Positions 22,578 through 43,218 of a DNA stretch of 64,000 nt are shown in pieces. Each line of letters starts with the position of its first letter. The first letter of the stretch is position 1. Origin of the DNA: Acidimicrobiia bacterium (GTDB taxonomy: Bacteria; Actinomycetota; Acidimicrobiia; Acidimicrobiales; CATQHL01); NCBI GenBank assembly GCA_009840735.1, contig VXNF01000108.1, positions 10,757-74,756 on the forward strand, written 5' to 3'. The notes under the pieces are model-generated. The model was given only the letters and a program-made list of their open reading frames with translations. It had not been told where the DNA came from and made no database searches. The position numbers and the translations under genes were made by a program.

Positions 22578-25500
22578 GTGGTCCCGCACGCCGATGAGCC
22601 CACGCTGATGAGCGCCGAGGGCGGATCGCACGGGCGGGCTCTACGCTCGAATCTTGTGGCCCGGTTGGAGGACTTGACGAAAGGCGTCCGCGTGCGGGGG
22701 GTGACTCCGACCGGGCCGGTGACGGTCATCGACGCCGACTGGATGGGCGCCGACGCGCTGACCCTCACCTACGAGGACAGCAGCGGGGCCACCGACCGCG
22801 AGGTCCTCTACCGCTCCAACGAGGAGGACCTGGAGTGGGCCGACGATGGCCGCCGCTGGTCGCTGGACGCCGATCCGGCGCTGTTCAAGCTGGTCTCCGA
22901 GGCGAAGCGCATCTCCCTCGCCTACCTGTTCGACCCGTACCTGGCCACCGAGACGAGCGACATCGAGGTGCTGCCGCATCAGATCGAGGCGGTCTACGCC
23001 GACATGCTGCCCCTTCGGCCGCTGCGTTTCCTGCTGGCCGACGACCCCGGTGCCGGCAAGACGATCATGGCCGGACTGCTCATCAAGGAGCTCATGGTGC
23101 GCGGCGACCTGGGGCGGTGCCTGATCGTCGTGCCCGGCGGGCTGGCCGAGCAGTGGCAGGACGAGCTGGGCGAGAAGTTCGGCTTGGAGTTCGAGTTGCT
23201 GAGCCGCGAGATGGTGGAGGCGTCCCGCTCCGGCAACCCCCTCCTCGAGCGCCCGCTGCTGGTGGCCCGCCTCGACATGCTGGCCCGCAACGACGATCTG
23301 CAAGCCCGGCTGGCGCAGACCGAATGGGACCTCGTCGTGGTGGATGAGGCCCACAAGATGTCGGCCTCGTTCCAGGGCGCCGAGGTGCGCGAGACCAAGC
23401 GCTACCGCCTCGGACGCCAGCTCGAACGGGTCGCCCGTCACTTCGTGCTGATGACCGCCACCCCCCACAACGGCAAGCCGGAGGACTTCCAGCTGTTCAT
23501 GGCGCTGCTCGACGGCGACCGCTTCGCCGGCAAGTTCCGCAAGGGGACTCACAGCGACGAACCGCCCCGCGACCTCATGCGTCGCATGGTCAAGGAGGAG
23601 CTGCTGCGCTTCGACGGGACGCCCCTGTTCCCCGAGCGGGTGGCGACCACGGCCAAGTACCCGCTGAGCGACGGCGAGAGCGAGCTCTACGAGCAGGTGA
23701 CCGAGTACGTCCGCAGCGGGATGAACCGGGCGGAGCGGCTGCGAGCCGAGGGGCAGGGCGGGCGCTCGGCGGTGGTGGGTTTCGCCCTCACGATCCTGCA
23801 GCGGCGCTTGGCGTCGTCCCCGCTGGCGATCTGGCGGTCGATCCAGCGCCGCCGCGCCCGGCTGGGCGCCCGGCTCGTCGAGGTGCGGGACATGCGAGCC
23901 GCCTTGGAGGTGACGCAGGTTCCCGCCGGCTACCAGCCAGACGACTTCGGCCACTTCGAGCGCGACTTCGAGCCCGATGATCTGCTGGGAAGCGAGGTGG
24001 AGGAGGTCGAGACCGAGATCCTCGACGCGGCGACCGCCGCCCGCACCGTCGAGGAGCTGGAGGCCGAGATCGCCGACCTCAGCCGCCTCGAGGAGCTGGC
24101 CGAGACGGTGTATCGGTCCGGCGCCGACCGCAAGTGGGAGGAGCTGGCCGGACTGCTGCAGAACACGCCGGAGATGCGCGACGCCGCGGGGCGCCGCCAC
24201 AAGCTGATCGTCTTTACCGAGCACCGCGACACGCTCGAATACCTGCAAGCCAAGCTGGCCGGCCTGCTGGGGAGGTCCGCAGCGGTCGTCGCCATCCACG
24301 GCGGCGTGAAGCGGGACGAGCGCCGCAAGGTGCAGGACCGGTTCACCCAGGACGCGGAGGTGACGATCCTGGTGGCGACCGACGCAGCCGGGGAGGGCCT
24401 CAACCTGCAGCGCGCCCACCTGATGGTGAACTACGACCTTCCCTGGAACCCCAACCGCATCGAGCAGCGCTTCGGGCGCATCCATCGCATCGGCCAGACT
24501 GACACCTGCCGCCTGTGGAACCTGGTGGCCGACGGCACCCGCGAGGGGACGGTGTTCGAGCGGTTGCTCACGAAGCTGGAGGAGCAGCGCCGCGCCCTCG
24601 GCGGGAAAGTCTTCGACGTCTTGGGCGAGGCGTTCTCCGACCGGTCGCTGCGGCAGCTGCTGATCGACGCCATCTGCAGCGAGGACCCGGTGCTGCAACG
24701 GGTGCGGATGGAGGCCGTGATCGACGGCACCGTCGGCGCCCGCACGCAGGAACTCATCGACGCCCAGTCGCTGCTCAGCGACGTTCTGGCGCCGGAGCGC
24801 ACCGCAGGCATCCGCGACGAGTTGGAGCGCGCCCGCGCCCGCAAGCTCCAGCCCGGTTTCGTGCGCAGCTTCTTCCTCGCTGCCCTGGCGCGACTCGGCG
24901 GGCGCGCCGCTGAGCGGGAGGCCGGCCGGTATCAGGTTGTCGGCGTGCCCGCGGCGCTGCGCAGCTGGGACAGCGCCAACCGGCGTGGCCGGCTGCTGCG
25001 GAACTACGAGCGGATCTGCTTTGAGCACGACCACGTGTCGGTGCCTGGCCGGCCGGTGGCGGATCTCCTGGCGCCGGGCCATCCGCTGCTCGACGCTGCC
25101 GTCGGGGTGACCCTGGAGCGCCACGGCGAGGTGCTGCAGCAGGGAACTGTGCTCATCGATCCGCAGGACTGGACGGAGACGCCGCGGCTGCTGGTGTTCC
25201 TCGAGCACGAGATCGTCGACGGCACCACGCTTCGCGACGGTCGCCGCCAGGTGGTCTCCCGACGCTTGGAGTACGTGGAGATCACCGAGACGGGCGACGT
25301 GGCCAGCGCCGGGCGGGATCCTCACATCGACCTGCGGGCCCCCGACGCCGACGAGCAGGTGTTGCTGGCGCCGCTGGCGGAGGCCGACTGGGTGATAGCC
25401 GGCCTCGAGACGACGGCCCTGCGCCACGCCGGCGAGCACAACGCGCCGCGACACCTCACCGAAGTGCAGGACCGGGTGCGGTGGCGGGTGGGGCGCACCC

Positions 25501-26174
25501 TCGAAGCCGTCGAGAGCCGCCTCACCGAGGAGATCCGCTACTGGGGCGCCGAGGCCCTGCGGCTGAAGGACAAGGAACTGGCCGGACAGAGCGGCGCCCG
25601 GCTCAACTCAGCCCTCGCCGGTCGCCGGGCCGACGAGGCCACCGAGCGCCTGCAACGCCGCCGAGCCGAGTTGGTTCTGCAAGCCAAGCTCTCGGTGCGG
25701 CGGCCCCGCGTCGTCGGCGGCGCCCTCGTGGTGCCCGCCGGCCTCGTGGTCAAGCTGGCAGGGACCGAAGTGCCCGACCACGCGCACGACACGGTGCGAA
25801 CCGAGAAGCTGGCCGTGGCCGCGGTGCTCGCCGTCGAGCGGGAGCTAGGGCGAGACCCTGTCGAGATGGCTCACAACAACGAGGGCTACGACGTCGAGAC
25901 CCGCGGCGACGACGGCCGCCTGCTGTTCATCGAGGTCAAGGGCCGGGTGGCGGGCGCCGACCTCTTCACGATCACCAACCGGGAACTCAACTACGGCCTG
26001 AACAACGCCGAACGTCACATCCTGGCCCTCGTGCGCGTCGAAGAGGACGACACCACCACCGTCCGCTACCTCTACGACCCGTTCGGCGGCCGGGAGCCTG
26101 CGCCCAGCGCCGCCGAGTACGACCGCCGCCTCTCCTGGGACACCTACTGGAACCTCGCCGAAGCGCCTCGGTGA
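22578..26174 (+). CDS. SNF2/DEAH-box superfamily-2 helicase with C-terminal DUF3883-like PD-(D/E)xK nuclease module
   Basis: Motif I DDPGAGKT, II VVVDEAHKM, III LMTATPHNG, VI QRFGRIHRIGQ. C-terminus NNEGYDVET...LLFIEVKG...HILALV. Alternative start ATG at 22608. Confidence 0.9.
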   Translation: MVPHADEPTLMSAEGGSHGRALRSNLVARLEDLTKGVRVRGVTPTGPVTVIDADWMGADALTLTYEDSSGATDREVLYRSNEEDLEWADDGRRWSLDADPALFKLVSEAKRISLAYLFDPYLATETSDIEVLPHQIEAVYADMLPLRPLRFLLADDPGAGKTIMAGLLIKELMVRGDLGRCLIVVPGGLAEQWQDELGEKFGLEFELLSREMVEASRSGNPLLERPLLVARLDMLARNDDLQARLAQTEWDLVVVDEAHKMSASFQGAEVRETKRYRLGRQLERVARHFVLMTATPHNGKPEDFQLFMALLDGDRFAGKFRKGTHSDEPPRDLMRRMVKEELLRFDGTPLFPERVATTAKYPLSDGESELYEQVTEYVRSGMNRAERLRAEGQGGRSAVVGFALTILQRRLASSPLAIWRSIQRRRARLGARLVEVRDMRAALEVTQVPAGYQPDDFGHFERDFEPDDLLGSEVEEVETEILDAATAARTVEELEAEIADLSRLEELAETVYRSGADRKWEELAGLLQNTPEMRDAAGRRHKLIVFTEHRDTLEYLQAKLAGLLGRSAAVVAIHGGVKRDERRKVQDRFTQDAEVTILVATDAAGEGLNLQRAHLMVNYDLPWNPNRIEQRFGRIHRIGQTDTCRLWNLVADGTREGTVFERLLTKLEEQRRALGGKVFDVLGEAFSDRSLRQLLIDAICSEDPVLQRVRMEAVIDGTVGARTQELIDAQSLLSDVLAPERTAGIRDELERARARKLQPGFVRSFFLAALARLGGRAAEREAGRYQVVGVPAALRSWDSANRRGRLLRNYERICFEHDHVSVPGRPVADLLAPGHPLLDAAVGVTLERHGEVLQQGTVLIDPQDWTETPRLLVFLEHEIVDGTTLRDGRRQVVSRRLEYVEITETGDVASAGRDPHIDLRAPDADEQVLLAPLAEADWVIAGLETTALRHAGEHNAPRHLTEVQDRVRWRVGRTLEAVESRLTEEIRYWGAEALRLKDKELAGQSGARLNSALAGRRADEATERLQRRRAELVLQAKLSVRRPRVVGGALVVPAGLVVKLAGTEVPDHAHDTVRTEKLAVAAVLAVERELGRDPVEMAHNNEGYDVETRGDDGRLLFIEVKGRVAGADLFTITNRELNYGLNNAERHILALVRVEEDDTTTVRYLYDPFGGREPAPSAAEYDRRLSWDTYWNLAEAPR

Positions 26175-26191
26175 GGGGCTCAGGTTTACCG

Positions 26192-26234: not shown

Positions 26235-26468
26235 GTGAAAGTCGCCGTATCAATCCCGGATCCCCTCTTCCGCCGTGCGGAGCGATCGGCGCGTCGCCGG
26301 AAGATGTCGCGCTCGCAGCTGTACGCGTTCGCGCTCGAACAGATCGTGGATCGCGAGGGTGACAGCGAGATCACCGATCAGCTCAACGCCGTGTATGCGG
26401 ACCACGACTCCCGACTGGATCCCGGCCTGGCGGCTGCGCAGGCCGAAGCCGTGCGCGAGCAGTGGTGA
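26235..26468 (+). CDS. mazE: Ribbon-helix-helix (CopG/MazE-like) antitoxin
   Basis: 77 aa. KVAVSIPDPLFRRAE...MSRSQLYAFALEQ is a typical RHH strand plus helices. Sits directly upstream of mazF. Confidence 0.75.
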   Translation: MKVAVSIPDPLFRRAERSARRRKMSRSQLYAFALEQIVDREGDSEITDQLNAVYADHDSRLDPGLAAAQAEAVREQW

Positions 26469-26480: not shown

Positions 26481-26831
26481 GTGCTGAGACGCGGCGACAT
26501 CTGTTGGGCGAACCTGCCAGAACCGGTGGGATCCGAGCCGGGATACCGCCGCCCGGTTCTGATCGTCTCCGCGGACGCCTTCAATGACAGCAGAATCAAC
26601 ACGGTGGTCGCGCTGGCGATCTCGTCCAACCTGGCCCTCGCCGATGCGCCTGGCAACGTGGAACTGCCTGCGGCGGACTCCGGGCTGGTTCGCGACTCGG
26701 TCGCGAACGTCACACAAGTCGTGACTCTCGACAAGGCCCAGGTGCGAGAGTGGGTCGGCAGCGCGGGCACCGAGTTGATGCGCCGGGTTGAGGCCGGCCT
26801 GCGCCTCGTCCTGCAACTCGAAGCAGGCTGA
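26481..26831 (+). CDS. mazF: MazF/PemK family endoribonuclease toxin
   Basis: RGDICWANLPEPVGSEPGYRRPVLIVS...VVALAISS...QVVTLDK matches the PemK pattern. Confidence 0.85.
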   Translation: MLRRGDICWANLPEPVGSEPGYRRPVLIVSADAFNDSRINTVVALAISSNLALADAPGNVELPAADSGLVRDSVANVTQVVTLDKAQVREWVGSAGTELMRRVEAGLRLVLQLEAG

Positions 26832-26880: not shown

Positions 26881-29736
26881 GTGACTGAGCTGCGGCGGAA
26901 GCTTATTGAGGTGGCGTTGCCGTTGGACGCCATCAACGCGGCGGCGGCGAAGGAGAAGTCGATCCGTCACGGGCACCCGTCGACGCTGCACCTCTGGTGG
27001 GCGCGGCGCCCGCTGGCGGCGTGCCGGGCGGTGCTGTTTGCCTCGCTCGTGGACGACCCCTCCGCGCACCCCGACAAGTTCCCGACTGATGCGGATCAGG
27101 CCGCCGAGCGCAAGCGGCTCTTCGAGATCATCGAGCGCCTGGTGCCGTGGAAGAACAGCAACAACTCCGACGTCCTTGCCGAGGCCCACGCAGAGATAGC
27201 CGCGAGTTGCGACGGCAAACATCCTGCGGTGCTCGACCCGTTCGCCGGCGGCGGGTCAATCCCGCTGGAGGCGCAGCGCCTGGGCCTCGAGGTGCACGCC
27301 TCGGACCTCAACCCCGTGGCGGTGCTCATAAACAAGGCAATGATCGAGATCCCGCCCCGGTTCGCCGGTCGGCCTCCTATCCATCCCGATCAGGAAGGCG
27401 CTGCGGACCTCCGGCAATGGTCGGGCGCGCAGGGCTTGGCCGCCGATGTGCGCTACTACGGGCGCTGGATGCGAGACGAGGCCCAGCGCCGCATCGGCCA
27501 CCTGTACCCGAAGGTCGATCTGCCCCCCGAGCACGGCGGAGGCGAGGCCAATGTGATCGCCTGGTTGTGGGCGCGCACCGTGCCCTCGCCGGACCCTGCG
27601 TGGCGTGGCCACGTTCCGCTGGTGAAGAGCTTCTTGCTGAGCAACAAGAAGGCGCGGCAGGTGTGGGTCCAGCCTGTCGTGGACCGCGCAACGAAGACCG
27701 TGCGGTACGAGGTGCGAACCGACGGCGACGGAGAGCCTCCAGAGGGAACCGTCACCCGCCAGGGCGCCCGCTGTCTCGCCACCGGCGCGGCCATGCCGTT
27801 CGAGCACATACGCGCCGAGGGACGCGCCGGGCGCATGGGTCAACAACTCTTGGCCATTGTGGCCGAGGGCGACCGGCAGCGGGTGTACCTCGAACCGTCC
27901 GCCGAGCACGCCGAGATTGCTCAGGCAACCACCCGAGAGGATGTGCCGACGGGAGAACTCTCGGGCAAGGCTCGCGCGAACGTCGCGAACTACGGCTTGA
28001 CCCGGTGGTCCGACCTGTTCACCGCCCGACAGTTGACGGCCCTCACCACGTTCAGCGACCTAGTGGACGAGGCGAGACAGCAAGCGAAGGCCGACGCCGC
28101 CGCCGCAGTCGGTTGGGTCAACGACCCGACCCTGCTACGGGACGGCGGCTCCGGTGGCGCCGCGTACGCCGAGGCGATCTCGGTCTATCTGGCTTTCGCG
28201 CTCTCAAAGATGGCTGATCGCGGATCGACGATCTGCACATGGTTCACCGCACGGGACTCGACTCGGAACACGTTCGCTCGCCAGGCGATCCCGATGACGT
28301 GGGATTTTGCTGAGGCCAACACACTGCTGGACGGAACCGGATCGTTCCTTGGGGCTGTGGGGTGGACGGCGGAATCAGTTGAGGGCCAGCAGCTGTTCGA
28401 CGCGCTCCCTGGGATTGTCTCGCAACTCGACGCCGCCGAGGCGCCCCGAGCACTCCATTCCCGCGGACAGGCGGAGTCGGGGTCGGGGCCTGTGGGCGGC
28501 GGGCGGCCCGGCGGGGGTCGGGCCGGTTCGCCGCCCTCGGGCTTGTTGGTGTCAACTGATCCGCCGTACTACGACAACATCGGGTACGCCGACCTGTCTG
28601 ACTTCTTCTACGTGTGGCTGCGCCGCTGCCTGGCGTCGGTGTACCCGGACGTGTGCGCGACGCTTCTGGTGCCGAAGGCGCAGGAACTGGTGGCCACGCC
28701 CTACCGCTTCGACGGCGACAGACGGAAGGCCGAAGAGTTCTTCGAGTCCGGGCTCAATCGAGTCTTCGAGCGGCTCGCGGAAGCTCAAGACGAGCGGTTC
28801 CCCATGACCGTGTACTACGCCTTCAAGCAGGCCGAGACCACTGAGGGTGGCGTGGCTTCCACGGGGTGGGAGACGATCTTGCAGAGCCTCATCAACGCGG
28901 GGTTAGTGATTGTCGGCACATGGCCGATTGCCACCGAGCTGAGAACCAAGCCCGTCGCTCTGGGGGCCAACGCCTTGGCGTCCTCGATCGTGCTGGTGTG
29001 CCGCCGGCGCTCGGAGTCGGCGCCGCTGGCGACCCGGCGCGAGTTCCTGCGCGCTCTCGAGGCCGAGCTGCCCGCGGCGCTGCGGCTGCTGCGCGAGGGC
29101 GGCATCGCGCCGGTGGACATGGCACAGGCGGCGATCGGCCCCGGCATGGCGGTGTTCTCTCGCTACGCCCGAGTCATGGAGGCCAGCGGCGAGACGATGC
29201 GGGTGCGCACCGCGCTGGAGCTCATCAACGAGACCCTCGATGAGGTCACCGAGGGCATCGACGCCGAGTTCGACTACGACACCCGCTGGGCGGTCAGCTG
29301 GTTCGCCGAGTACGGCTTCGAGCAGGGCGAGTTCGGCCGCGCCGAGCTGCTCTCGAAGTCCCGCAACACCTCGGTGGCGGGCCTCGCCGAGGCGGGCATC
29401 GTCGCATCCGGCGCCGGCAAAGTGCGCCTGTTGCGCCGCGACGAGCTGGACCCCGACTGGGACCCGGCCACCGACCGCCGCTTCACCGTCTGGGAAGTCG
29501 CCCATCACCTCATCCATAGAATCCACCATGACGGCGAAGCAGCAGCCGCGGCCCTGCTCGGCGCCGTCGGCGGCCACGGCGAGGCCGCCAAGGAGCTCGC
29601 CTACCGCCTCTACCTCGTCTGCGAGCGCAAGGGCTGGGCCGCCGACGCCCTCGACTACAACAGCCTCGTAACCTCCTGGCCCGAACTAACCAAACTCGCC
29701 GCCACCGCAAAACCAACCCAAGCCGCCCTCCTGTAG
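26881..29736 (+). CDS. DUF1156-type DNA methyltransferase (COG1743-like), copy 1, full length, Zn-ribbon cysteines absent
   Basis: 951 aa. N-terminus KLIEVALPLDAIN...HGHPSTLHLWWARRP, AdoMet motif VLDPFAGGGSIPLEA, catalytic DPPYYDNIGYADLSDFFYVWL, long C-terminal domain (DTRWAVSWFAEYGF...). Confidence 0.85.
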   Translation: MTELRRKLIEVALPLDAINAAAAKEKSIRHGHPSTLHLWWARRPLAACRAVLFASLVDDPSAHPDKFPTDADQAAERKRLFEIIERLVPWKNSNNSDVLAEAHAEIAASCDGKHPAVLDPFAGGGSIPLEAQRLGLEVHASDLNPVAVLINKAMIEIPPRFAGRPPIHPDQEGAADLRQWSGAQGLAADVRYYGRWMRDEAQRRIGHLYPKVDLPPEHGGGEANVIAWLWARTVPSPDPAWRGHVPLVKSFLLSNKKARQVWVQPVVDRATKTVRYEVRTDGDGEPPEGTVTRQGARCLATGAAMPFEHIRAEGRAGRMGQQLLAIVAEGDRQRVYLEPSAEHAEIAQATTREDVPTGELSGKARANVANYGLTRWSDLFTARQLTALTTFSDLVDEARQQAKADAAAAVGWVNDPTLLRDGGSGGAAYAEAISVYLAFALSKMADRGSTICTWFTARDSTRNTFARQAIPMTWDFAEANTLLDGTGSFLGAVGWTAESVEGQQLFDALPGIVSQLDAAEAPRALHSRGQAESGSGPVGGGRPGGGRAGSPPSGLLVSTDPPYYDNIGYADLSDFFYVWLRRCLASVYPDVCATLLVPKAQELVATPYRFDGDRRKAEEFFESGLNRVFERLAEAQDERFPMTVYYAFKQAETTEGGVASTGWETILQSLINAGLVIVGTWPIATELRTKPVALGANALASSIVLVCRRRSESAPLATRREFLRALEAELPAALRLLREGGIAPVDMAQAAIGPGMAVFSRYARVMEASGETMRVRTALELINETLDEVTEGIDAEFDYDTRWAVSWFAEYGFEQGEFGRAELLSKSRNTSVAGLAEAGIVASGAGKVRLLRRDELDPDWDPATDRRFTVWEVAHHLIHRIHHDGEAAAAALLGAVGGHGEAAKELAYRLYLVCERKGWAADALDYNSLVTSWPELTKLAATAKPTQAALL

Positions 29737-32132: not shown

Positions 32133-33274
32133 CGCTGCTCCCGGGAGCGTCTGATTGCTGCAGCGACGGTGGGATGGCTCACGCCGAGTCGAGCCGCGAT
32201 CTGACGGTTGGAGAGGCCGAGGTGTTCGCTCATAGCGACACACAGGAGGTCACGGTCGGGGCCCGGCTGGTGTGATCCCTTGGCCAGGGCATCGAGGAGC
32301 ATGTCGCCGACAGTCCCCCCGGCGAGCAGTGAGCGTCGTTGAGCCTTCTCCCACAGGCGCGTCAGATCTGAGCCGCTGGAGCCATCGCTGAGCGCCACGA
32401 CTAACTCGAGCATGGATTCATCGGTGGCCTCGATCCCACCTGCGAGATACCCGAGGATCCGGCGGCGCTCGTCGGGTCCGGGAAGGGGAAGTCGGATGTG
32501 GCGGTCGAAGCGACGGTCAACGGCTGGGTCGAGAATTCTCAGATGATTCGTGGCGGCTACCAGAAGGCTCGCGTCTGGCCACCGGTCCAACTCGAGCAGG
32601 ACGACGTTGACTATGCGCTTCAACTCGCCAATGTCAGTGTCATCGTCGCGGCGCTTGGCGAGAGCGTCGAACTCGTCCAGTAACAGCACGCATGCCCCGG
32701 ACTTGGCGAATTCCAGCGCGGAGCGGATATTGCGACCACTAGTTCCCAGGTAACTGGACACGACCGTCGCGAGGTCGATCGACACGAGAGGCACTCCAAT
32801 CTCCGCCGCCAGCCAGTGAGCTGCCATCGTCTTGCCAACCCCAGGGGGACCGCTCAGCAGCACCGTTCGTGTCAGGCCGACGCCCGCAGCGGCGAGTTCG
32901 TCGGCGCGCGATCGCTCCGCCACGATCTCCGCCAACTCGTCTGCCACGATCGGATCGAGGGTGAGTCCGTCGGCTTCCGGGAAGGGATCAACGCTCACGA
33001 GGGAATGTGTCGTGCCCTCCTCTCGTGGGAGTTCGGGTTCCGCGTAGCGCAGTCCGATGGCGCTGCCGGAAGCCGAGAGAGCCTCGTGCACCGCGGCCCG
33101 GAACTCCGCGGGGTCGGTAACGCCCGGAGGCACCGTTCGCAGTAGCCGCGTCGCAAGCTGGCGAACACCCGCGGCGTACCCGGTTGCGCCCACGCGGACC
33201 AAGTCGAAGACCGCTTGCTCGAGATCTGAAGCCGACTGGTAAGTCTGCGCCCGCATCTTCAGCTTACTTTCCAT
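32129..33274 (-). CDS. Classical-clade AAA+ ATPase with C-terminal HTH, IetA-like
   Basis: Walker A GPPGVGKT, Walker B LLLDEFD, sensor-1 VAATN, Arg-finger region DPAVDRRFD. C-terminal LSNRQIAARLGVSHPTVAAAIRR. Confidence 0.85.
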   Translation of the reverse strand: MESKLKMRAQTYQSASDLEQAVFDLVRVGATGYAAGVRQLATRLLRTVPPGVTDPAEFRAAVHEALSASGSAIGLRYAEPELPREEGTTHSLVSVDPFPEADGLTLDPIVADELAEIVAERSRADELAAAGVGLTRTVLLSGPPGVGKTMAAHWLAAEIGVPLVSIDLATVVSSYLGTSGRNIRSALEFAKSGACVLLLDEFDALAKRRDDDTDIGELKRIVNVVLLELDRWPDASLLVAATNHLRILDPAVDRRFDRHIRLPLPGPDERRRILGYLAGGIEATDESMLELVVALSDGSSGSDLTRLWEKAQRRSLLAGGTVGDMLLDALAKGSHQPGPDRDLLCVAMSEHLGLSNRQIAARLGVSHPTVAAAIRRSREQR

Positions 33275-34794: not shown

Positions 34795-35021
34795 CGCCCG
34801 ACCCCTCGGATCTCCTGCGCCGAGCAGAATTCGGATTGTCCTGCAGTGACGCGGCTGAGGCGCTGCGCCGCGAGCGATACGCCCGCCGTGTCCGCGCCGA
34901 GTTCGCCGCCCTGCGGGCGGATCCGCAGGGCTGGCAGGCCTACCTGAGCGAAGCGGACCTCACGGCCGTCGCCGATGGCGTCGATTACTCGAGGAATGTG
35001 TTGATCGCAACGGGTTCGTAG
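34791..35021 (+). pseudogene. Probable remnant of an RHH (MazE-like) antitoxin gene, lacking the N-terminal beta-strand and lacking any toxin partner
   Basis: TPDPSDLLRRAE resembles IPDPLFRRAE of the mazE at 26235. The tail RADPQGWQAYLSE...ADG is like actinobacterial MazE tails. The only start is a TTG overlapping the upstream stop, and the last 12 codons are antisense to the DUF4411 gene. Confidence 0.3.
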
Positions 35022-35290
35022 TTCGAGCTGTTCGCCCAGGTGCTTACTTCGCCACGGCTCGGCATGATCGACGGGTCGGGTGATAGGAACAGCTCCGGCC
35101 GTTGTCTTGCCCAAACGGCGAGTTCGTCATCACCGGCCTCGATCTCAGCGCCCACCCGTTCGATGCTGGCCACTGCGCCCGTCGCGCGGGTTCGGTCAAT
35201 CCAGTCCCAGAACGCGGGACAGAAGTCGAACCCGTAGTGCAGGTTCTTGGCCTGGATGAAGACGTTTGCGTCGAGAAGATATCGGGTCAC
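34985..35290 (-). CDS. DUF4411-like PIN-domain protein, C-terminally truncated
   Basis: MTRYLLDANVFIQAKNLHYGFDFCPAFWDWI is a typical DUF4411 N-terminus. It stops after 101 aa, where family members (about 160 aa as I recall) continue. GTGA overlap with the upstream ImmA gene. Confidence 0.6.
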   Translation of the reverse strand: MTRYLLDANVFIQAKNLHYGFDFCPAFWDWIDRTRATGAVASIERVGAEIEAGDDELAVWARQRPELFLSPDPSIMPSRGEVSTWANSSNYEPVAINTFLE

Positions 35291-36423
35291 ACGACCCTCA
35301 GTTCTGTGGCCAGACGCTCGAACGTCGCCGTCTTCTTGAAGCCAAGCATCCGGAATGCGTCCGTGTAGAGAGTCTGACCCTCGAGGGTGCTGGCGATCAC
35401 CGACCGAGCGAAGAGCTTGCTGACCCTCACCGGTTGCGCGTGGTAGTAGTTGCCGCCGTCCCCGCCGAGACCCATCACGCGGCCCATCTCACCGGCGTAG
35501 GCAGTGCGGAAGTCCTGCCAGTTGAGGTAGCCGGCTTCGCGGAGTCGGCGCAACACGACAAGGGTGCTGCACCGGAACAGGCGAGCAAGCCGGTCGAGTT
35601 CTCGGGTCCGGTCGGTTTCGGGGTTGAACTCCGCCCGCAAACGCTCCAGCGGAACGAGCAACTCTGCGGCGACCTGGTTGCACCATCGCTCGACGTCGGG
35701 CGTTGGCCTGCCACCGAGGTCGGCGTCTGAGAGCGCGCTCTCTGCCAGCCAGATGTGTGCCAGTTCATGGGCGAGCGTGAAGACTTGGGCCGCCTTCGTG
35801 TCGGCACCGTTGACGAAGACGACCGGCGCTCGATCGTCGACCAGCGCGAACCCCCGGAATTCGCGAGGGTCGAGCTTACGGTGGGTGTTACTGCCGACGA
35901 TTCCGCTGATCATGACGAGAACTCCCAGCGTCTCGGCTTGGTCGCGCAGCCGGGCGAGCGCTTCGCTCCAACCGCCGCCCCGGCTCTCAACGGCAAAATC
36001 CAAAGCGGCTGTCATGGTGCGAGCCGCGATAGAGATCGGCGATGCTGTGGTGAGCGAGCCCACGACCTCGACACGGTCGAACCCGTTCCGGAGGGCGTGC
36101 TCGTGGTACCAGTCCTGCCGTTGCTGGCACTGGTAGATGGTGTCGAGGAGGTTCGCGCTCGGCCTCGCCGGGGGTCTGTCACCGATTGTGCGAAAGTCCG
36201 GGATCGGGAGTCGCTCCTCGGGTGGTGCGGCCAGGAAGAAGAAGCCGATCGGCGTGTAGGTGCGGGCAGCGAACGCCTCCAACTGCTTGAACGTCGGCTG
36301 GCGGTCACCGCTCTCCCAGTCATCGAGCCGCGGAAACCTCTCCGCCGCGGTCTCCCGGTCGAGCCCGGCGCGATCGAGCGCCCATCGGTACATCTCCGGC
36401 CGCACGTCGACACGCATCGTCAC
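35287..36423 (-). CDS. ImmA/IrrE-family zinc metallopeptidase fused to an N-terminal HTH-like domain (COG2856-like)
   Basis: 378 aa. Zn motif FTLAHELAHIWL, downstream ERWCNQVAAELLVP. Confidence 0.8.
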   Translation of the reverse strand: MTMRVDVRPEMYRWALDRAGLDRETAAERFPRLDDWESGDRQPTFKQLEAFAARTYTPIGFFFLAAPPEERLPIPDFRTIGDRPPARPSANLLDTIYQCQQRQDWYHEHALRNGFDRVEVVGSLTTASPISIAARTMTAALDFAVESRGGGWSEALARLRDQAETLGVLVMISGIVGSNTHRKLDPREFRGFALVDDRAPVVFVNGADTKAAQVFTLAHELAHIWLAESALSDADLGGRPTPDVERWCNQVAAELLVPLERLRAEFNPETDRTRELDRLARLFRCSTLVVLRRLREAGYLNWQDFRTAYAGEMGRVMGLGGDGGNYYHAQPVRVSKLFARSVIASTLEGQTLYTDAFRMLGFKKTATFERLATELRVV

Positions 36424-36489: not shown

Positions 36490-36900
36490 TCATCTGGAGG
36501 CGGCGAATGGGTTGACGACTTGGACGTCTCGGATGATCTGGCCGGCGTTGAAGTCCTCGGTGAGGAGGCGGTCGGCGCCGGCTGCGGCGGCCGCCTCGAC
36601 GATCAGGGCGTCCCAGATAGAGAGCCTCGCACTGAGGGCAGTGTCGGTTGCGCGCAGGACGAGTCGGTGATCCACTGGCACGACGCGGAGCGCGGCCATC
36701 TGGCGCACGCCCTCGCGTGCGGCCCGCGGGTCGAGGTTGAGCTTCCTGGTGGCCACCCAGAAGAACTCTGTCAGCACCTGGGTGGAGATGACAAGATCTT
36801 CAGCGGCGTCGGTGAGCGTCGCTCGAGCGACGCGCTGCTTGTCGACCTCGGCGTGGTCGTAGAGGTATACGAACACGTTCGTGTCGACGAAGGCGCTCAG
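36490..36900 (-). CDS. vapC: PIN-domain VapC-like toxin (start codon uncertain: CTG at 36900 or GTG at 36876)
   Basis: PIN acidic residues FVDTNV, VLTEF, IWDALIV and LLTEDF. The first Asp lies upstream of the first canonical start. The CTG forms a CTGA overlap with the vapB stop. Confidence 0.65.
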   Translation of the reverse strand: MSAFVDTNVFVYLYDHAEVDKQRVARATLTDAAEDLVISTQVLTEFFWVATRKLNLDPRAAREGVRQMAALRVVPVDHRLVLRATDTALSARLSIWDALIVEAAAAAGADRLLTEDFNAGQIIRDVQVVNPFAASR

Positions 36901-37142
36901 CGGCCTGTCCGTTCCCCGTAGATGTCTTCGCGGGTCCAGCCGCGGCCCGCGTTGCCGCTGGTGGCACCGGCGTCGGCGGCGAGCGCGATGAGGGTTAGCA
37001 CGGTGGCGCCCTGCTGCGAGGTGCCGGTGAAGGACACCAAGAAGTCGCGCACGGCGGCGTTCACCGACGTGCCGGACTCGAGAGCCCGGATCCGAGCGCG
37101 ACGCAGCAATTCGTCGTCGATCGCGAGTGTGAGATTCGCCAC
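36897..37142 (-). CDS. vapB: Ribbon-helix-helix VapB-like antitoxin
   Basis: 81 aa from GTG 37142: VANLTLAIDDELLRRARIRALESGTSVNAAVRDFL. The rest of the 344-aa track ORF upstream is antisense to the methylase gene and looks spurious. Confidence 0.7.
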   Translation of the reverse strand: MANLTLAIDDELLRRARIRALESGTSVNAAVRDFLVSFTGTSQQGATVLTLIALAADAGATSGNAGRGWTREDIYGERTGR

Positions 37143-37311: not shown

Positions 37312-39741
37312 GTGCCGTCGGGGCGCAAGCTTATTGAGGTGGCGTTGCCGCTGGAGGCCGTGAACGCCGCTGGGCGGGCCGAGAAGGCCGTGCCGAAGAA
37401 GGGCCATCCGGCGACGATGCACCTTTGGTGGTCCCGCAAGCCGCTGGGCGTGGCGCGGGCCGTGCTGTTCGCCTCGCTCGTGGACGACCCGTCGGCCCGG
37501 CCGGATCGATTCCCCACCGAGGCCGACCAGCAGGCCGAGCGCCGACGGTTGCTGGAGCTCGTCGAGGGGCTCTGCCGATGGGAGCGCAGCGGCGACGTTG
37601 CTCTGCTGGCGGAGGCGCAGGACCGAATCGCGGCCTCCGCGGGCGGCGATGCGCCGAGAATCATTGACCCGTTCTGCGGCGGCGGGGCCATCTCGACCGA
37701 GGCGACGCGGCTGGGGTTGAACACTCTCGCCATCGACCTGAACCCCGTCGCCAGCCTGGTGAGCGCGGCCACCCTCACGGTGGCGCAACGGTTCGCCGGG
37801 GTGCCTGCTGTCAACGGTGGGGTGCGCTCCGGCGGCGCGCCGCTGGGTGGGGGTCGTACCGGGGGTGTTCGGTCGGCGGGCGGTGCCGGCGCGGGGCGCG
37901 GCGGCGGGCTGGCGGGGATTGCGGCTGACATCGCGTTCTACGGGGCAGCCGTCGAGGGCGAGTGTCAGCGGCGCCTCGCGGGCGCTTTCGAGGCGCCTGT
38001 GAGTCCACTGTCGCCGAGCGGGCGCACGGTGGCGATCTCCTACCTGTGGGCGCGGACGATCACCTGCGCCAACCCAGGCTGCCGCCGCACCACGCCGCTG
38101 CTGTCCACCTGGTGGCTGTCCAAGAAGCGAACGAACCGCTGGCATGCCCGCCCGGTTATCGACGGCGACCGCTTCGACTTCGACGTGGCCTCCGGGCCGC
38201 CGCCCGCTGAAGTCGTTGATCTCAAGATCGGACGGGGGGCCAACTTCCGCTGCCTGTTCTGCAACACCGTGAACGACGCAGAGGCCGTGCGCCACTGGGG
38301 GCGAGAGTTCGGCTTCGGGCTGCGTCTGGTGGCCACCCAAGCGTTCGCTGACCCGCTGCGGCGCCGAGGCGGACGCGTCTGGCTGGCACCCGACGCCGCG
38401 AGCCAACAGGCGGGCCTCGCCGGCGGCGACGCCAAGTACGCCGAGGCCGTCGAGGCAGCACTGCGCCGAGAGCTGCCGACCGAGTGCGGGAACGTCACCT
38501 CGTTCGGGCTGCGCACCTTCGGCGACCTGCTGTCTCCACGCCAGCGGCGCACGATGGCCACCTTCAGCGAGGCAATAAACGGGATCACTCCCGTCGTACA
38601 CAGCGACGCGGTCGATGCCGGAATGCCCGACGGCGAAGTCGGCCTCGAGGAGGGTGGCAGCGGGGCGCGCGCCTACGCCGAGGCCATCACCACCTACCTG
38701 GCGCTCGCCCTGTCGCGCATGGCCAACCGCACGACGGCGATGACGACCCACAACCGGGCCAACGGCTCGGTGGAGCAGTCGTTCATCCGGCCCGCCTACG
38801 GGTTCTACGGTGAGTTCCCCGAGGCCAATCCCTTCTCCGGGTCGACGGGCTCCTGGGCCGGCGGTCTCGACTACGTCGTCAAGGCGGTCGAGGCTCTCCC
38901 CGCGCCCGCTCCGGCGACACGGGTCGGCCAAGCCGAAGTGCGCTGCGCCTCGATGCTCACCGCCCTCGACGGCGAGGTCGGCGTGGTCTGCACCGATCCG
39001 CCCTACTACGACATGTTCGACTACGCATCGCTGTCGAATCTGTTTCTTGTGTGGCTCAGGGCGACGCTCGGCAACGTGTGGCCAGACACGCTGGGGCCAC
39101 TCCTCGCACCCAGCGACGAGCAGATCGTCGCCAACTCGGCGCGCTCGGGGGGACACAGGGCGGCGGCGCACGCCCACTTCGAGACGCTGCTAAGCCGGGC
39201 CTTCGAGCACATGCGAGACGTCCAAGACCCCCGCTACCCGCTGACCGTCTACTACGGATACCAGCAGGGCGACAACAAGGGTAGCGGCGGGGCCTGGGAG
39301 GCTCTGCTGGAGAGCCTGATCTCGGCCGGCTTCCGGATCACCGCATCGTGGCCATTGCGCACCGAGCGGCCCGAAGGCGTCAAGAAGGGCACCAAGTCGT
39401 TGGCTTCGTCGGTGCTGCTGGTGTGCCGCGCCGCCGAGGACGGAGCTGGGCGAGCTGTGGCGACGCTTACTGACTTGAGAGGAGAGCTGCGGGCCGACCT
39501 GCCCGGCGCCATTCGGTTGTTCCAGCAAGCCAACGTCGCCCCCCTGGATCTCGCGCAGGCTGCCGTCGGGGTTGGGATGGCGGCGTACACGCGTTACGGA
39601 AGGGTGCTGGCCTCAGACGGATCGCCCATGGGCGTGCGAGCAGCCTTGGCGCTGATCAACGAGGTCTTCGACGAGACGCTCACCGACACCGGCGACGGAC
39701 GGGACGCGGAGCGCCGTGCCGCGCAGGCGCCTCGACACTGA
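37312..39741 (+). CDS. DUF1156-type DNA methyltransferase, copy 2, Zn-ribbon retained, C-terminal domain lost or decayed
   Basis: GTG 37312 gives VPSGRKLIEVALPLEAVN, parallel to copy 1. IIDPFCGGGAISTEA, CANPGC...CLFCNT (CxxC...CxxC), DPPYYDMFDYASLSNLFLVWL. Ends at an in-frame TGA about 170 aa short of copy 1. Confidence 0.8.
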   Translation: MPSGRKLIEVALPLEAVNAAGRAEKAVPKKGHPATMHLWWSRKPLGVARAVLFASLVDDPSARPDRFPTEADQQAERRRLLELVEGLCRWERSGDVALLAEAQDRIAASAGGDAPRIIDPFCGGGAISTEATRLGLNTLAIDLNPVASLVSAATLTVAQRFAGVPAVNGGVRSGGAPLGGGRTGGVRSAGGAGAGRGGGLAGIAADIAFYGAAVEGECQRRLAGAFEAPVSPLSPSGRTVAISYLWARTITCANPGCRRTTPLLSTWWLSKKRTNRWHARPVIDGDRFDFDVASGPPPAEVVDLKIGRGANFRCLFCNTVNDAEAVRHWGREFGFGLRLVATQAFADPLRRRGGRVWLAPDAASQQAGLAGGDAKYAEAVEAALRRELPTECGNVTSFGLRTFGDLLSPRQRRTMATFSEAINGITPVVHSDAVDAGMPDGEVGLEEGGSGARAYAEAITTYLALALSRMANRTTAMTTHNRANGSVEQSFIRPAYGFYGEFPEANPFSGSTGSWAGGLDYVVKAVEALPAPAPATRVGQAEVRCASMLTALDGEVGVVCTDPPYYDMFDYASLSNLFLVWLRATLGNVWPDTLGPLLAPSDEQIVANSARSGGHRAAAHAHFETLLSRAFEHMRDVQDPRYPLTVYYGYQQGDNKGSGGAWEALLESLISAGFRITASWPLRTERPEGVKKGTKSLASSVLLVCRAAEDGAGRAVATLTDLRGELRADLPGAIRLFQQANVAPLDLAQAAVGVGMAAYTRYGRVLASDGSPMGVRAALALINEVFDETLTDTGDGRDAERRAAQAPRH

Positions 39742-39891
39742 CACCGCCCGCGCCACCGAGGCGCCTGGCTGTCGCAGTTCGGCGCCCGTCGGAACCGGTC
39801 CGCCCCGACCGGCACCTTGCTACCTTTGTTCGCTCCGACGGTTGCAGTTGTCGGCTGATTCGCCGCTGGGGCCGCGGAGAGGAGTGATCTA
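39742..39891 (+). pseudogene. Frame-scrambled remnant of the methylase C-terminal domain
   Basis: By-eye matches to the copy-1 C-terminus appear in three frames: LDTDTAR vs FDYDTRW, AWLSQFG vs AVSWFAEYG, and LATFVRSDGCSCRLIRR vs LAEAGIVASGAGKVRLLRR. The segment also carries the ggagaggag RBS of the next gene. Confidence 0.3.
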
Positions 39892-42800
39892 GTGGCGCTG
39901 AGCAACCACGAGCGGATCGGCAAGGCGATCGCCCTGGTGGGCGAGGGGTTGGCGCCGTTCGTGGCCCGCGAGTGCGAGGCACAGTTCGGCCGCAGCTGGC
40001 CGGCGGCCGTGCAGCGGGTCGAGACACGGGGCGGTCGCCCGCGGCAAGTCAATCCACGAGATCCGCAGTTCTTGCTGAAGGTGCTTTGGGATGAGTGGAA
40101 CGCGGTGTTCTCGCGCAAGCTGTCGCGAGCCGACCGCAGCTATGTGGCTGAACTCCAGGCTGTGCGTAACTCATGGGCTCACAACGAGAGTTTTTCCACA
40201 GACGACGCCCTCCGCGGGCTAGACACCGCCCAGCGCTTGCTGGAGTCCGCCGCCGCCGGCGCGCAAGCGAACGAGGTAGGTGGCCTGCACCAGGAACTGC
40301 TGCGCCTGAAGTTCGAGGAGCAGAGCCGCAGCGCTCGGCGCGCCAGGGCGCAGCGCACCGAGGCCGGGGTGGCGGCCGGGCTGCCGCCGTGGCGGGAGGT
40401 CATCGAGCCGCACGACGACGTCACCTCCGGGCGTTTCGAGATGGCGCAGTACGCCGCCGACCTTCACCAGGTGTGGCGCGGCGCGGCCGCGGCCGAGTAC
40501 GGCGACCCGACCGAGTTCTACCGGCGCACCTTCATAACCGAGGGGCTCGGCAAGCTGATCACCGGCGCAGTTGAGCGTTTCGCCGGCAGCGGCGGCGACC
40601 CCGTCGTGAAGCTGCAGACCAACTTCGGCGGTGGCAAGACGCACGCCCTCATCGCCCTGTACCACCTCGCCGGCGCCGACCGTGCGGCCGACCTTCCCGG
40701 CGTGGAAGATCTTCTGACCGGCGGGGGATTGACCCTTCCCGGAACCGGGGTGCGCCGAGCGGTCCTCGTGGGGCACCAACTTGAGCCCGGGAGCGCCGCC
40801 GAGAAGCCCGACGGCACCGCAGTTAGCACCATTTGGGGTGAACTTGCCTGGCAGCTTGGTGGATCTGATGCATATTCGCTGGTGGCAGAAGCGGACCGGA
40901 CCGCCACCAGCCCCGGCGCCGCCCTCGGCGAACTCCTGGCCGCCCACGCGCCGTGCCTGATCCTGATCGACGAGTGGGTGGCCTACGCCCGCCAGCTCTA
41001 CGGGCAGCAGGGTCTGCAGGCGGGGACCTTCGACGCCCACTTCAGTTTCGCCCAGGCGCTTGCCGACGCCGTCGCCGCCACCCCGCGGGCGCTGCTGGTG
41101 GCCACCATCCCGGCCTCGCAGATCGAGGTCGGCGGTGAGGGCGGGCAGGCGGCGCTCACCCGCCTGGAGAATCTGTTCGGGCGCGTGGAGGCCAACTGGC
41201 GCACAGCCTCCACCGAGGAGAGCTTCGAGATCGTCCGGCGCCGGCTGTTCAAGCCGCTCAGCGCCGCCTCGGCCCGCAAGCGGGAGGCGGTGGCGGCCGC
41301 CTTCGCCGAGCTCTACCGGGCCAACAGCGGCGAGTTCCCGTCGGAGTGCCGGGAGGGCGAGTACCGGCGGCGGATGGTGGCCGCCTACCCGGTCCACCCG
41401 GAGTTGTTCGACCGGCTTTTTGGCGATTGGTCGAACCTGGAACGCTTCCAGCGAACCCGCGGTGTGTTGCGCCTGATGGCCAAAGTTATCCACAGTCTGT
41501 GGATGAACGAGGACGCGACTCTGCTGATCATGCCGGGCACGATTCCCGTCGACGACGCCGAAGTTGCCGCCGAAATGACCCGCTACCTGGACGATGGCTG
41601 GCGGCCGGTGCTGGAGGTGGACGTGGACGGGCCCAAGGCCCTCTCGTGGCGTCTCGACTCGGAGAACGCCCCGCTCGGCCGCTACTCGGCGGCGCGGCGG
41701 GTGGCCCGCACGGTGTACTTCGGTTCTGCGCCCAGCCAGCAGGCCGCAAACAAGGGCCTCGACGACCGTTCGATCAAGCTCGGCTGTGTCCAGCCGGGGG
41801 AGCGCCCGGCCACCTTCGGTGACGCCCTCCGGCGACTCTCGGACCGGGCCACGTACCTGTACCGCGACGCATCCCGCTACTGGTACGCGCTGGCGCCGAC
41901 GGTTACGCGCATGGCTCAGGATCGGGCCGCCGAGCTCAAGTCTCTCGACGTTGACGAGGCGATCCGCCGCCGCCTCGGCGCGCAGGCCGCCCGTCGGGGC
42001 GACTTCGCCGCTGTGCATCCTTGTGTCCGCTCGCCCGGCGAGGTGCCCGACGAGGACACGGTCCGGCTCGTGATCATCGACCCCGGCTTCGAGCACGACC
42101 GCAGCAGCAAGCTGAGCCGGGCCCAAGACTTCGCCTCGGTGGTCTTGGACGAGCGCGCCGGCGGGGCGCGGCGCCATCGCAACATGGTGGTGTTCCTAGC
42201 GGCTGACAGTGCCCGGCTCGGAGAGTTGCGCCAAGCGGCCCGGCAGTGGCTCGCCTGGGACTCCATTCGCCGCGACGGCGAGACCCTGAACCTGGACGCC
42301 TTCCAGACCCGCCAAGCGGACGCCAAGACGCAGGAGTTCGACGAGACGGTAGACCAGCGCATCGTCGAGACCTACCAGTGGGTGCTCAACCCCGAGGCGC
42401 ACGAGAACGACCCGACGGGGCCAATGACCTGGGACACGTTCCGGCTGCCGAGTGTCGGCGTGGGGCGAGCCGGCGCCGGCTCGGAGTCGCTGGCCGAACG
42501 GGTCTCTCGCAAGCTGATCGCCGATGAGAGCCTGGTGCCCGGCTACTCCGGTCCTCGGCTGCGGCTGGACATCGACCGGGTGCCGCTGTGGCGAGGCTCG
42601 GAGGTCAGCGTGGCGCAGCTTTGGGGCGACTTCACCCAGTACCTGTATCTGCCCCGGCTTCGGGATCGGTCGGTGCTGGATGAAGCGGTGCGCGACGGCG
42701 TGGCCTCGCTGACTTGGCGGGCCGACGGCTTCGCTTACGCGGAGGCCCGCGGCGCTGTGGGCGCGGGCGGGGAGAGTGGCCGCTACGTCGGTTTGCGGGC

Positions 42801-43218
42801 GGGCGAGGCCCTCCTCGCACCCGCGCCGAGCGGTCTGGTGGTCCACCCGGACGTGGCTGCTGGGCAACTGGCCGCTGAACGGGCCGAGAGCCTCGACCGC
42901 CCCGATGAACCCGGAGGAGCGGCCGACGGCGACTTTGACTCACCGGGTGATGACGAGCCCGACCCGGCGCCCGGCCGTCCGCCCCTGCCCACCCGCTACT
43001 GGGGCCGGGTCACGCTGGACTCGCTGCACTGGACCCGAGCGGCCGCCGACATCGCCGACGCCATCGTCAACCAGCTCGCCCGCACGGACGGCGCCCGCGT
43101 CGAGATCACCATCGAGGTGGAAGGCACCGCCCCGGAGGGATTCGACGAGGCCACCCAGCGCACCGTTCGGGAGAATGCCGCCACACTGAAGTTCACGACC
43201 GGCGAATTCGAAGCCTGA
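39892..43218 (+). CDS. DUF499-type P-loop ATPase (COG1483-like) with N-terminal Swt1-like HEPN domain
   Basis: 1108 aa. HEPN Rx4H motif AVRNSWAHNE, P-loop NFGGGKTHAL, Walker B CLILIDEWVAY. Strong RBS ggagaggag 7 nt upstream of the GTG. Confidence 0.85.
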   Translation: MALSNHERIGKAIALVGEGLAPFVARECEAQFGRSWPAAVQRVETRGGRPRQVNPRDPQFLLKVLWDEWNAVFSRKLSRADRSYVAELQAVRNSWAHNESFSTDDALRGLDTAQRLLESAAAGAQANEVGGLHQELLRLKFEEQSRSARRARAQRTEAGVAAGLPPWREVIEPHDDVTSGRFEMAQYAADLHQVWRGAAAAEYGDPTEFYRRTFITEGLGKLITGAVERFAGSGGDPVVKLQTNFGGGKTHALIALYHLAGADRAADLPGVEDLLTGGGLTLPGTGVRRAVLVGHQLEPGSAAEKPDGTAVSTIWGELAWQLGGSDAYSLVAEADRTATSPGAALGELLAAHAPCLILIDEWVAYARQLYGQQGLQAGTFDAHFSFAQALADAVAATPRALLVATIPASQIEVGGEGGQAALTRLENLFGRVEANWRTASTEESFEIVRRRLFKPLSAASARKREAVAAAFAELYRANSGEFPSECREGEYRRRMVAAYPVHPELFDRLFGDWSNLERFQRTRGVLRLMAKVIHSLWMNEDATLLIMPGTIPVDDAEVAAEMTRYLDDGWRPVLEVDVDGPKALSWRLDSENAPLGRYSAARRVARTVYFGSAPSQQAANKGLDDRSIKLGCVQPGERPATFGDALRRLSDRATYLYRDASRYWYALAPTVTRMAQDRAAELKSLDVDEAIRRRLGAQAARRGDFAAVHPCVRSPGEVPDEDTVRLVIIDPGFEHDRSSKLSRAQDFASVVLDERAGGARRHRNMVVFLAADSARLGELRQAARQWLAWDSIRRDGETLNLDAFQTRQADAKTQEFDETVDQRIVETYQWVLNPEAHENDPTGPMTWDTFRLPSVGVGRAGAGSESLAERVSRKLIADESLVPGYSGPRLRLDIDRVPLWRGSEVSVAQLWGDFTQYLYLPRLRDRSVLDEAVRDGVASLTWRADGFAYAEARGAVGAGGESGRYVGLRAGEALLAPAPSGLVVHPDVAAGQLAAERAESLDRPDEPGGAADGDFDSPGDDEPDPAPGRPPLPTRYWGRVTLDSLHWTRAAADIADAIVNQLARTDGARVEITIEVEGTAPEGFDEATQRTVRENAATLKFTTGEFEA

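Follow-up and report, generated by a model that had tools for sequence, protein, structure and literature searches.

The window analyzed here, a stretch of 64,000 nucleotides from an Acidimicrobiia bacterium (contig VXNF01000108.1), carries the core genes of an Hma (helicase, methylase, ATPase) defense system: an SNF2-type helicase-nuclease (hmaA), two DUF1156 methylases (hmaB and hmaB', termed MTase-1 and MTase-2 in an earlier note on this DNA) and a HEPN-DUF499 ATPase (hmaC). All four lie on the + strand at 22578-43218, spread across 20.6 kb. How did they come to be apart? The earlier note had left two explanations standing: either two partial systems were brought together, or other defense genes landed time and again in a single operon. 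We examined the genes of the window by open reading frame (ORF) and codon-position analysis and with Pfam profiles and PADLOC profile models, fetched loci around relatives of HmaC, HmaB and HmaB', and mapped all window proteins onto these related loci (L numbers below). The profile searches bear out the gene map and the domain calls made earlier for the helicase, the two methylases and the ATPase, as well as their assignment to the Hma class (scores in Table 1). We consider it quite probable that the window holds one chromosomal defense island built on a four-gene, HEPN-fused Hma operon (A-B-B'-C) that has been used repeatedly as a landing site.

The four-gene scaffold in related loci

The order A-B-B'-C, with no cargo between A, B and B', was found in three unrelated contigs, L095, L097 and L006, the last from a Gemmatimonas metagenome-assembled genome (MAG). 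Identities to the A/B/B'/C proteins of the window are 68/56/50.5/62% in L095, 66/60/52/60% in L097 and 66/39/50/60.5% in L006. HmaA is thus at least 66% and HmaC at least 60% identical in these loci, whereas single-methylase loci peak at 54% for A and 49% for C, and across loci a higher identity of A goes with a higher identity of C. A fourth locus, L112, has the order A-x-B-B'-x-C, two of its junctions each holding a single small gene, and one further context is ordered A-x-x-B-C-B'. On a neighbor-joining tree of HmaB proteins, B' forms a separate deep branch; in a database of 5.8 billion proteins its clade comprises ~90 clusters at 45% identity or more, after which scores fall to generic HmaB. 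The clade retains the four-cysteine Zn-ribbon, and wherever HmaC is still present, B' adjoins it. Together, the scaffold, identity and B'-clade results point to an old four-gene operon as a repeated landing site and speak against two partial systems having met recently, since HmaB' is an old paralog (40% identical to HmaB overall) from an HmaC-linked clade, found within the four-gene operon in distant taxa. The same low identity rules out that HmaB' is a recent duplicate of HmaB.

The ordinary one-methylase arrangement A-B-C is present in ~70 actinobacterial and other loci, and its methylase is 45-55% identical to HmaB and 34-39% to HmaB'. Most of the ~79 loci fetched by HmaC alone have an HmaB upstream, and most of these, provided that the flank is long enough, are in turn preceded by a same-strand HmaA. 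The co-occurrence of the families posited by the earlier note is therefore not a matter of chance.

The nearest relatives of the window HmaC (76-92% identity) come from Acidimicrobiales MAGs and metagenome contigs, and in these the island occupies the same chromosomal site. It is flanked on the left by genes for a luciferase-like monooxygenase and a fatty-acid hydroxylase, and on the right by a 109-aa gene followed by a D-serine dehydratase or NUDIX gene. At this one site, the scaffold from A and B to B' and C is found in at least eight related genomes (L083, L085, L086, L087, L088, L092, L093 and L009), each with different cargo. The most compact version is L087 (A-mazEF-B-mazEF-B'-C); L083 reads A-B-AbiC-IetSA-transposase-B'-Fic-C, L086 A-DUF6338-B-TPR/kinase/IetA-like-B'-C and L093 A-B-AbiC-vapBC-B'-C, and L009 carries B, several toxin-antitoxin (TA) pairs, PDC-S01, vapBC and then B'-C. 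The comparison with contiguous relatives, which the earlier note had proposed as a check, thus identifies the A-B, B-B' and B'-C junctions as cargo slots and upholds the idea of one operon as a repeated landing site. Repeated use of these three slots explains the spread of the four genes over 20.6 kb.

Could the two halves of the locus instead be independent neighbors? In such an arrangement, hmaA and hmaB would form a helicase-nuclease/methylase module, and hmaB' and hmaC a second one that works without a helicase and uses HEPN as its effector. The constant adjacency of B' and HmaC would fit this, as would three loci (L005, L007 and L113) in which B'-C has no A within 10 kb, the finding that HmaA alone defends in Escherichia coli (PMC11232893), and the opposite-strand cargo that separates the two halves in the window. 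However, the loci with only B'-C occupy the same chromosomal site and resemble deletion products, L085 keeps a remnant of HmaA, and A+B without C was not seen at the shared site. Moreover, A and C identities co-vary across loci, and beyond the decaying lineage of the window the four genes make up one co-oriented operon (L095, L097, L006 and L112). L113 itself retains a second HmaB upstream: tblastn locates at 7247-9943, directly 5' of B', a canonical HmaB (50% identical to that of the window) that is absent from the gene calls and probably frameshifted. L113 is therefore also a two-methylase locus. We regard two independent modules as improbable, and return to the single operon below.

State of the four genes and the tail of HmaB'

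We next compared the four gene products with their homologs. The HmaA match to PDLC00659 spans residues 28-1178 of 1198, and Pfam recognizes in the protein SNF2-rel_dom, Helicase_C and NOV_C (= DUF3883; 1.1e-14, residues 1076-1162), with no match to PLD/HKD. BrxHII profiles match secondarily, at 288-324 bits versus 1440 for the HmaA profile. Sequence matches in the PDB are limited to RapA, the closest relative, and Snf2 remodelers; the PDB search returned no relatives for HmaB or HmaC. HmaA retains all 290 positions invariant among 14 homologs, and its catalytic residues are in place (Walker A GAGKT158-162, DEAH256-259, motif VI and D1105/E1119/K1121). Its start codon is uncertain within about 10-25 codons. 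In HmaC, the PDLC00662 match covers residues 164-1107 of 1108 and leaves outside the profile an N-terminal HEPN domain (HEPN_Swt1, 1.2e-31, residues 11-118). All 179 invariant positions are kept, including Walker A GGGKT246-250, Walker B DE360-361 and the HEPN motif R92-x4-H97. Both HmaA and HmaC look intact.

HmaB (951 aa) retains 93 of 93 universal HmaB invariants. Both methylases contain the FxGxG and DPPY motifs seen in the earlier note, here DPFAGGG / DPFCGGG plus DPPYY. An AlphaFold 2 (AF2) model of HmaB (pLDDT 82.6) comprises a core and three C-terminal helical domains: a helical domain at ~719-796, a winged helix at ~799-850 and a helical bundle at ~870-942. In the target-recognition insert (residues ~236-300), the Acidimicrobiales HmaB lineage has replaced three of four Zn-ribbon cysteines (columns SWCT), and the CCCC pattern is kept in HmaB' and most canonical HmaB proteins. 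Judged by these residues, HmaB looks functional, as do HmaA and HmaC.

HmaB' is of a different state. It keeps the catalytic motifs and the four-cysteine Zn-ribbon, and its identity to HmaB ranges from 57-64% at the N terminus to 24-30% over the recognition insert. The earlier note had missed that it is truncated, at 809 aa versus 920-1020 aa in orthologs. The C-terminal ~145 aa, comprising the winged-helix and the last helical domain, are gone. In DNA alignments with L009, L005 and L007, the frame leaves that of the orthologs near residue 798, and piecemeal deletions have removed ~430 nt from the old 3' end, leaving recognizable remains upstream of the well-conserved hmaC leader. Mapped onto the AF2 model of HmaB, the break separates the first C-terminal helical domain from the winged helix, at the equivalent of HmaB residue ~797-800. 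HmaB' therefore lacks two of the three C-terminal helix-turn-helix (HTH)-like domains and keeps the first alone; the model of HmaB shows all three. Three further proteins of the B' clade, P0145 (L110), P0165 (L111) and P0209, stop within a few residues of the same point (after ...ALINEV.DE...), and in L110 and L111 the loss of the tail accompanies loss of most or all of hmaC. The shared endpoint suggests a domain boundary at which loss is tolerated or favored. The truncated allele is common to several metagenome samples (L001-L003; P0121 cluster, 13 members). Relative to L001 and L002, the window gene differs by a 69-nt in-frame indel (37830-37898) in a Gly-rich loop (GGVRSGGAPLGGGRTGGVRSAGG...), the least conserved stretch among orthologs, and the rest of the gene is identical.

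These features raise the possibility of a decaying relic, in which Hma no longer works, hmaB' is a pseudogene and the site persists to hold active cargo (IetAS, PDC-S01 and TA pairs). Besides its truncated and degraded tail, HmaB' has changes at two universally invariant HmaB residues (T679S and P754V) and is unusually divergent from close orthologs over residues 651-800, and among relatives A, B, the B' tail or C have been lost independently many times. However, HmaA, HmaB and HmaC keep all invariants in open frames over 1198, 951 and 1108 aa, the truncated allele is shared between samples, and the cut coincides exactly with a domain boundary near which three other B' proteins end. An excess of substitutions as a sign of pseudogenization was rejected, because the retained ~800 aa of HmaB' carry five private changes, T679S and P754V among them, at otherwise invariant positions compared with 0-14 in orthologs, and the protein is not an outlier. 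While HmaB' may be on its way out, we consider it very improbable that the whole system is a relic. Across the lineage, the methylases are the most persistently retained parts of the scaffold, a pattern that would be expected if restriction is lost before modification. Separately, the genome of L007 contains, ~240 kb from its B'-hmaC, an orphan methylase of the HmaB type (L084, DUF1156, 69% identical), which adjoins a DUF222/HNH gene near a type I-U-like CRISPR-Cas cluster, far from hmaA and hmaC.

What is left of the former 3' end of hmaB' and the hmaC leader fill the 150 nt between the two genes. A ribosome-binding site (RBS), GGAGAGGAG, does precede hmaC at 39876-39884, as the earlier note had read, although its statement that the genes abut without a gap is wrong. 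Neither are these two genes alone in being spaced as in an operon, as it had claimed: the gaps in the run hmaA-mazE-mazF-hmaB are tighter (60, 12 and 49 nt). The leader is conserved across nine loci and contains at 39817-39833 the non-coding motif TTGCTACCTTTGTTCGC, which is found ~75 nt 5' of hmaC in L005, L007, L009, L086, L087, L088, L092 and L093 and is missing where a Fic gene separates B' and hmaC (L004 and L085). This element is a candidate internal promoter or operator. A hairpin in the leader (CCGAC...GTCGG) was discarded as a structure, its pairing not being kept in orthologs when inspected by eye and covariation support being absent; only the TTGCTAC... motif is conserved there.

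Cargo and borders of the island

Nine genes are embedded in the window locus, six of them on the opposite strand, and eight genes, most of them opposite-strand, lie between hmaB and hmaB' (Table 1). The cargo named in the earlier note was recovered in full (mazEF, an AAA-S8 pair now assigned as IetAS, a COG1373 ATPase corresponding to PDC-S01, ImmA with a truncated DUF4411 gene, and vapBC), with the exception of an 'antitoxin scar' at 34791-35021, which found no domain support in the profile search.

Table 1. Genes and elements of the island, with their positions in the window and the matches that identify them
Feature	Position	Strand	Evidence
Xre/MbcA/ParS-C antitoxin-like gene	18964-19470	-	Pfam/PADLOC matches
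SoFic-type Fic protein	19612-20805	+	PADLOC 8.7e-52
hipA	20904-22205	-	Pfam/PADLOC matches
hipB-like HTH	22195-22521	-	Pfam/PADLOC matches
hmaA, RapA-like Snf2 helicase with C-terminal PD-(D/E)xK (NOV_C/DUF3883) nuclease	22578-26174	+	PADLOC HmaA PDLC00659, 1440 bits
mazE-like (A-B slot)	26235-26468	+	weak RHH match
mazF (A-B slot)	26481-26831	+	PemK_toxin 7.9e-26
hmaB (MTase-1), DUF1156 N6-adenine methylase, canonical HmaB type, full-length	26881-29736	+	HmaB 1172 bits; DUF1156 1e-32
IetS (Peptidase_S8 subtilase)	29757-32132	-	PADLOC IetS 3.2e-33
IetA (AAA+ ATPase)	32129-33274	-	PADLOC IetA 6.8e-72
AAA_14/DUF4143 ATPase (PADLOC candidate PDC-S01)	33586-34794	+	PDC-S01 6.4e-93; DUF4143 3.3e-32
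DUF4411 PIN-like gene, truncated	34985-35290	-	DUF4411 8e-27, profile 1-100 of 159
ImmA/IrrE-type M78 peptidase	35287-36423	-	Peptidase_M78 1.8e-17
vapC (PIN)	36490-36876	-	PIN 3.4e-11
vapB (RHH-like)	36897-37142	-	FitA-like RHH 1e-4, under cutoff
hmaB' (MTase-2), separate HmaB paralog clade	37312-39741	+	HmaB 556 bits (profile 3-820 of 973); DUF1156 1.5e-22
Decayed hmaB' 3' remnant and conserved hmaC leader	39742-39891	+	DNA alignment
hmaC, Swt1-like HEPN fused to DUF499 ORC/Cdc6-like AAA+ ATPase	39892-43218	+	HmaC PDLC00662, 988 bits
109-aa gene, right border	43282-43611	+	72-86% identical copies 3' of hmaC in relatives

The mazEF pair is co-oriented with the hma genes and tightly spaced, and the same pair occupies the A-B slot in L087 and L088. 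IetAS is complete, its two adjoining genes overlapping by 4 nt. Its G+C content is 0.63-0.65 versus ~0.70 for the window, and its third-position GC is weaker than that of the hma genes; the lower G+C fits a more recent foreign origin. In relatives, IetS is truncated in L092 and reduced to a fragment in L086. The DUF4411 gene is called truncated because just the first part of the profile is covered. The vapBC pair, divergent from hmaB', also stands 5' of B' in L007, L009, L085, L088, L092 and L093, and in most relatives has long occupied this position.

Toward the left, the island extends beyond hmaA (18964-22521), and the G+C of the window falls to 0.63-0.67 over ~18-37 kb, with the dip starting near 18 kb. 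The hipBA genes diverge from hmaA across an intergenic distance of just 56 nt, and Fic genes lie beside or within the Hma scaffold also in L083, L085 and L087. A toxin partner for the Xre/MbcA/ParS-C antitoxin-like gene was not identified within the window. At the right border, the 109-aa gene, whose product is possibly a membrane protein, is found after hmaC throughout the relatives and is retained in L096, L110 and L111 despite the loss of hmaC. Housekeeping genes border the island on both sides. An 877-aa open frame in the housekeeping flank (12869-15502, - strand) has moderate third-position GC and no Pfam match, and may be spurious or an unannotated gene.

A tRNA scan of the window found none, and no integrase domain is encoded within the island; there is thus no sign of an integrative element. 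We searched for repeats around the cargo that might mark insertion scars and found no flanking direct repeats, the only meaningful repeats nearby being the homologous 5' ends and cores of hmaB and hmaB'. A scan of 22-41 kb for promoters and terminators yielded one promoter-like and four terminator-like sites, no more than expected from shuffled sequence, and was uninformative on transcription units.

Working model and known systems

How might such a locus work? By sequence, intact motifs are present for N6/N4-type DPPY methylases, an SF2 translocase with a PD-(D/E)xK nuclease, an AAA+ ATPase and a HEPN RNase. Our working model draws on homology and on one experimental paper (PMC11232893; PMC12839542; PMC3710099 for roles). 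The ancestral operon would have been hmaA-hmaB-hmaB'-hmaC, with hmaB' beside hmaC and equipped with its own target-recognition insert. In the Acidimicrobiales lineage the operon would have stayed at a fixed site, its A-B, B-B' and B'-C junctions serving repeatedly as cargo slots. The DPPY methylases are predicted to mark host DNA at two motifs, which would differ because the recognition inserts of B and B' share no sequence relationship. The ORC/Cdc6-like AAA+ protein HmaC, which has winged HTH (wHTH) and RRM domains, may scan or scaffold on DNA, the Snf2 translocase and PD-(D/E)xK nickase of HmaA would cut unmarked invader DNA, and the HEPN RNase of HmaC could act as a last-resort abortive effector.

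Several points weigh against this model or qualify it. The scaffold is unstable in relatives: HmaA is deleted or absent in L088, L005 and L007 and survives in L085 as a fused remnant (residues 22-92 joined to 1111-1197), in L092, where the end of IetS is lost too, just 106 aa of HmaB are left, and HmaC is split in L085, fragmentary in L110 and missing from L096 and L111. Given this instability, the locus in the window may have lost part of its activity. In L112, B' is paired with a distant A (53%) and C (44.5%), so that B' is not strictly co-inherited with a single A/C clade. Because six of the nine cargo genes are opposite-strand, in convergent or divergent arrangements, read-through from hmaA to hmaC is unlikely, and gene orientation, the sole basis for this point, suggests that there are probably at least two expression units, hmaA-mazEF-hmaB and hmaB'-hmaC. 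The function proposed for the window locus, and for two-methylase Hma generally, is argued from homology. Finally, phage from an HmaB-overexpressing host did not escape, and HmaA alone was enough against T4, so that methylation as the mark of self is unproven (PMC11232893).

It is tempting to speculate that Hma loci with two methylases form a subtype distinct in function, in which HmaB' is not a spare protector but the partner of HmaC, giving it a second DNA specificity through the C-terminal wHTH, and in which loss of this wHTH uncouples methylation from restriction. We regard this as unlikely, if worth stating. If true, the sensing/restriction complex would thereby recognize either another motif or the opposite strand of an asymmetric site, and loss of the wHTH (in the window, P0145, P0165 and P0209) would be a route to the safe dismantling of such systems. 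Whatever its function, the related loci, with one, two or truncated methylases and with or without helicase or ATPase, form a natural deletion series for the dependence between parts, and the locus clearly exemplifies a defense operon that has long served as a landing pad, its scaffold outlasting the cargo that comes and goes.

We compared the locus to the systems reported so far. The operon was noted in 2013 by Anantharaman et al. as restriction-modification (R-M)-like, with a HEPN-DUF499 ATPase and an SNF2-DUF3883 helicase (PMC3710099), which is the earliest description we could verify. The earlier note had credited Makarova et al. 2011, an attribution that is unconfirmed, as our literature search found no paper linking COG0553, COG1743 and COG1483. 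Hma was named by PADLOC in 2021 (Payne et al., PMC8565338) and re-described in 2026 as the Type-1 BREX-related (BR) system, centered on DUF499, with the HEPN fusion in 1370 of 2446 taxa (PMC12839542). Together with the demonstration that Halomonas meridiana HmaA alone protects E. coli against T4 via its PD-(D/E)xK nickase (PMC11232893), this renders partly outdated the earlier view of the mechanism as essentially uncharacterized. The window shares with PADLOC Hma its three protein families, at very high scores and with HmaB matched twice. With H. meridiana it shares the one-strand A-B-C order, the conserved HmaA nuclease motif and the A-B and B-C cargo slots, which there hold Septu between hmaA and hmaB and 6.6 kb between hmaB and hmaC (PMC11232893). 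It differs from Hma as described in having two HmaB paralogs instead of one, an N-terminal HEPN beyond the PADLOC HmaC profile, and eight mostly opposite-strand genes between B and B'.

The window shares with Type-1 BR the HEPN-fused DUF499 AAA+ protein, the DUF1156 N6-methylase with a nested recognition insert, and an Snf2 helicase with a C-terminal PD-(D/E)xK nuclease (predicted active) and no N-terminal HKD. All BR methylases are reported to have three C-terminal HTH-like domains (PMC12839542); the AF2 model of HmaB agrees with this, and HmaB' departs from it. The main text of that study has one methylase per system, whereas the operon of the window adds a phylogenetically separate second, and we found no mention of a two-methylase Hma in the main texts of the Hma/BR papers that we read. 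The ORFs at 18.9-44 kb have no Pfam match to DUF3780 (like HKD, a marker of Type-2) or PglZ/iSTAND (Type-3). From BREX type 3 the locus differs in lacking PglZ, BrxA and BrxF, which there accompany BrxC, PglXI and BrxHII. In Type IIS and other R-M systems with two methyltransferases, the enzymes differ in their recognition modules but share one restriction function. The window is alike in its genes alone, and its effector is an Snf2-nickase with an AAA+ ATPase rather than a Type II endonuclease.

The scattering of the genes, which the earlier note took to be unusual, is the published norm: embedded genes were found in 62.7% of 1,485 curated Hma systems (bioRxiv 10.1101/2024.01.29.577857, Payne et al. 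2024) and in 66.5% of those in the Halomonas study (PMC11232893). As in other defense systems with embedded genes (Hma, BREX, DISARM and Type I R-M), the nested defense and TA modules of the window vary between relatives. However, 96.7% of embedded genes in the survey are co-oriented with the host system (10.1101/2024.01.29.577857), in contrast to the six of nine that run opposite here. The survey required hma genes to lie on one strand, each once, with at most three foreign genes per gap (10.1101/2024.01.29.577857). The window genes do share one strand, but HmaB is present twice and eight genes separate the two copies; the once-only and three-gene rules therefore exclude loci such as this one and hide them from view. 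The Hma system, the HEPN fusion and the embedding of other defense genes are thus already published, and the locus stands apart in its second methylase paralog, its unusually large and mostly opposite-strand embedded block, and a B' cut at a domain boundary. We regard the two-methylase Hma as a modestly new variant.

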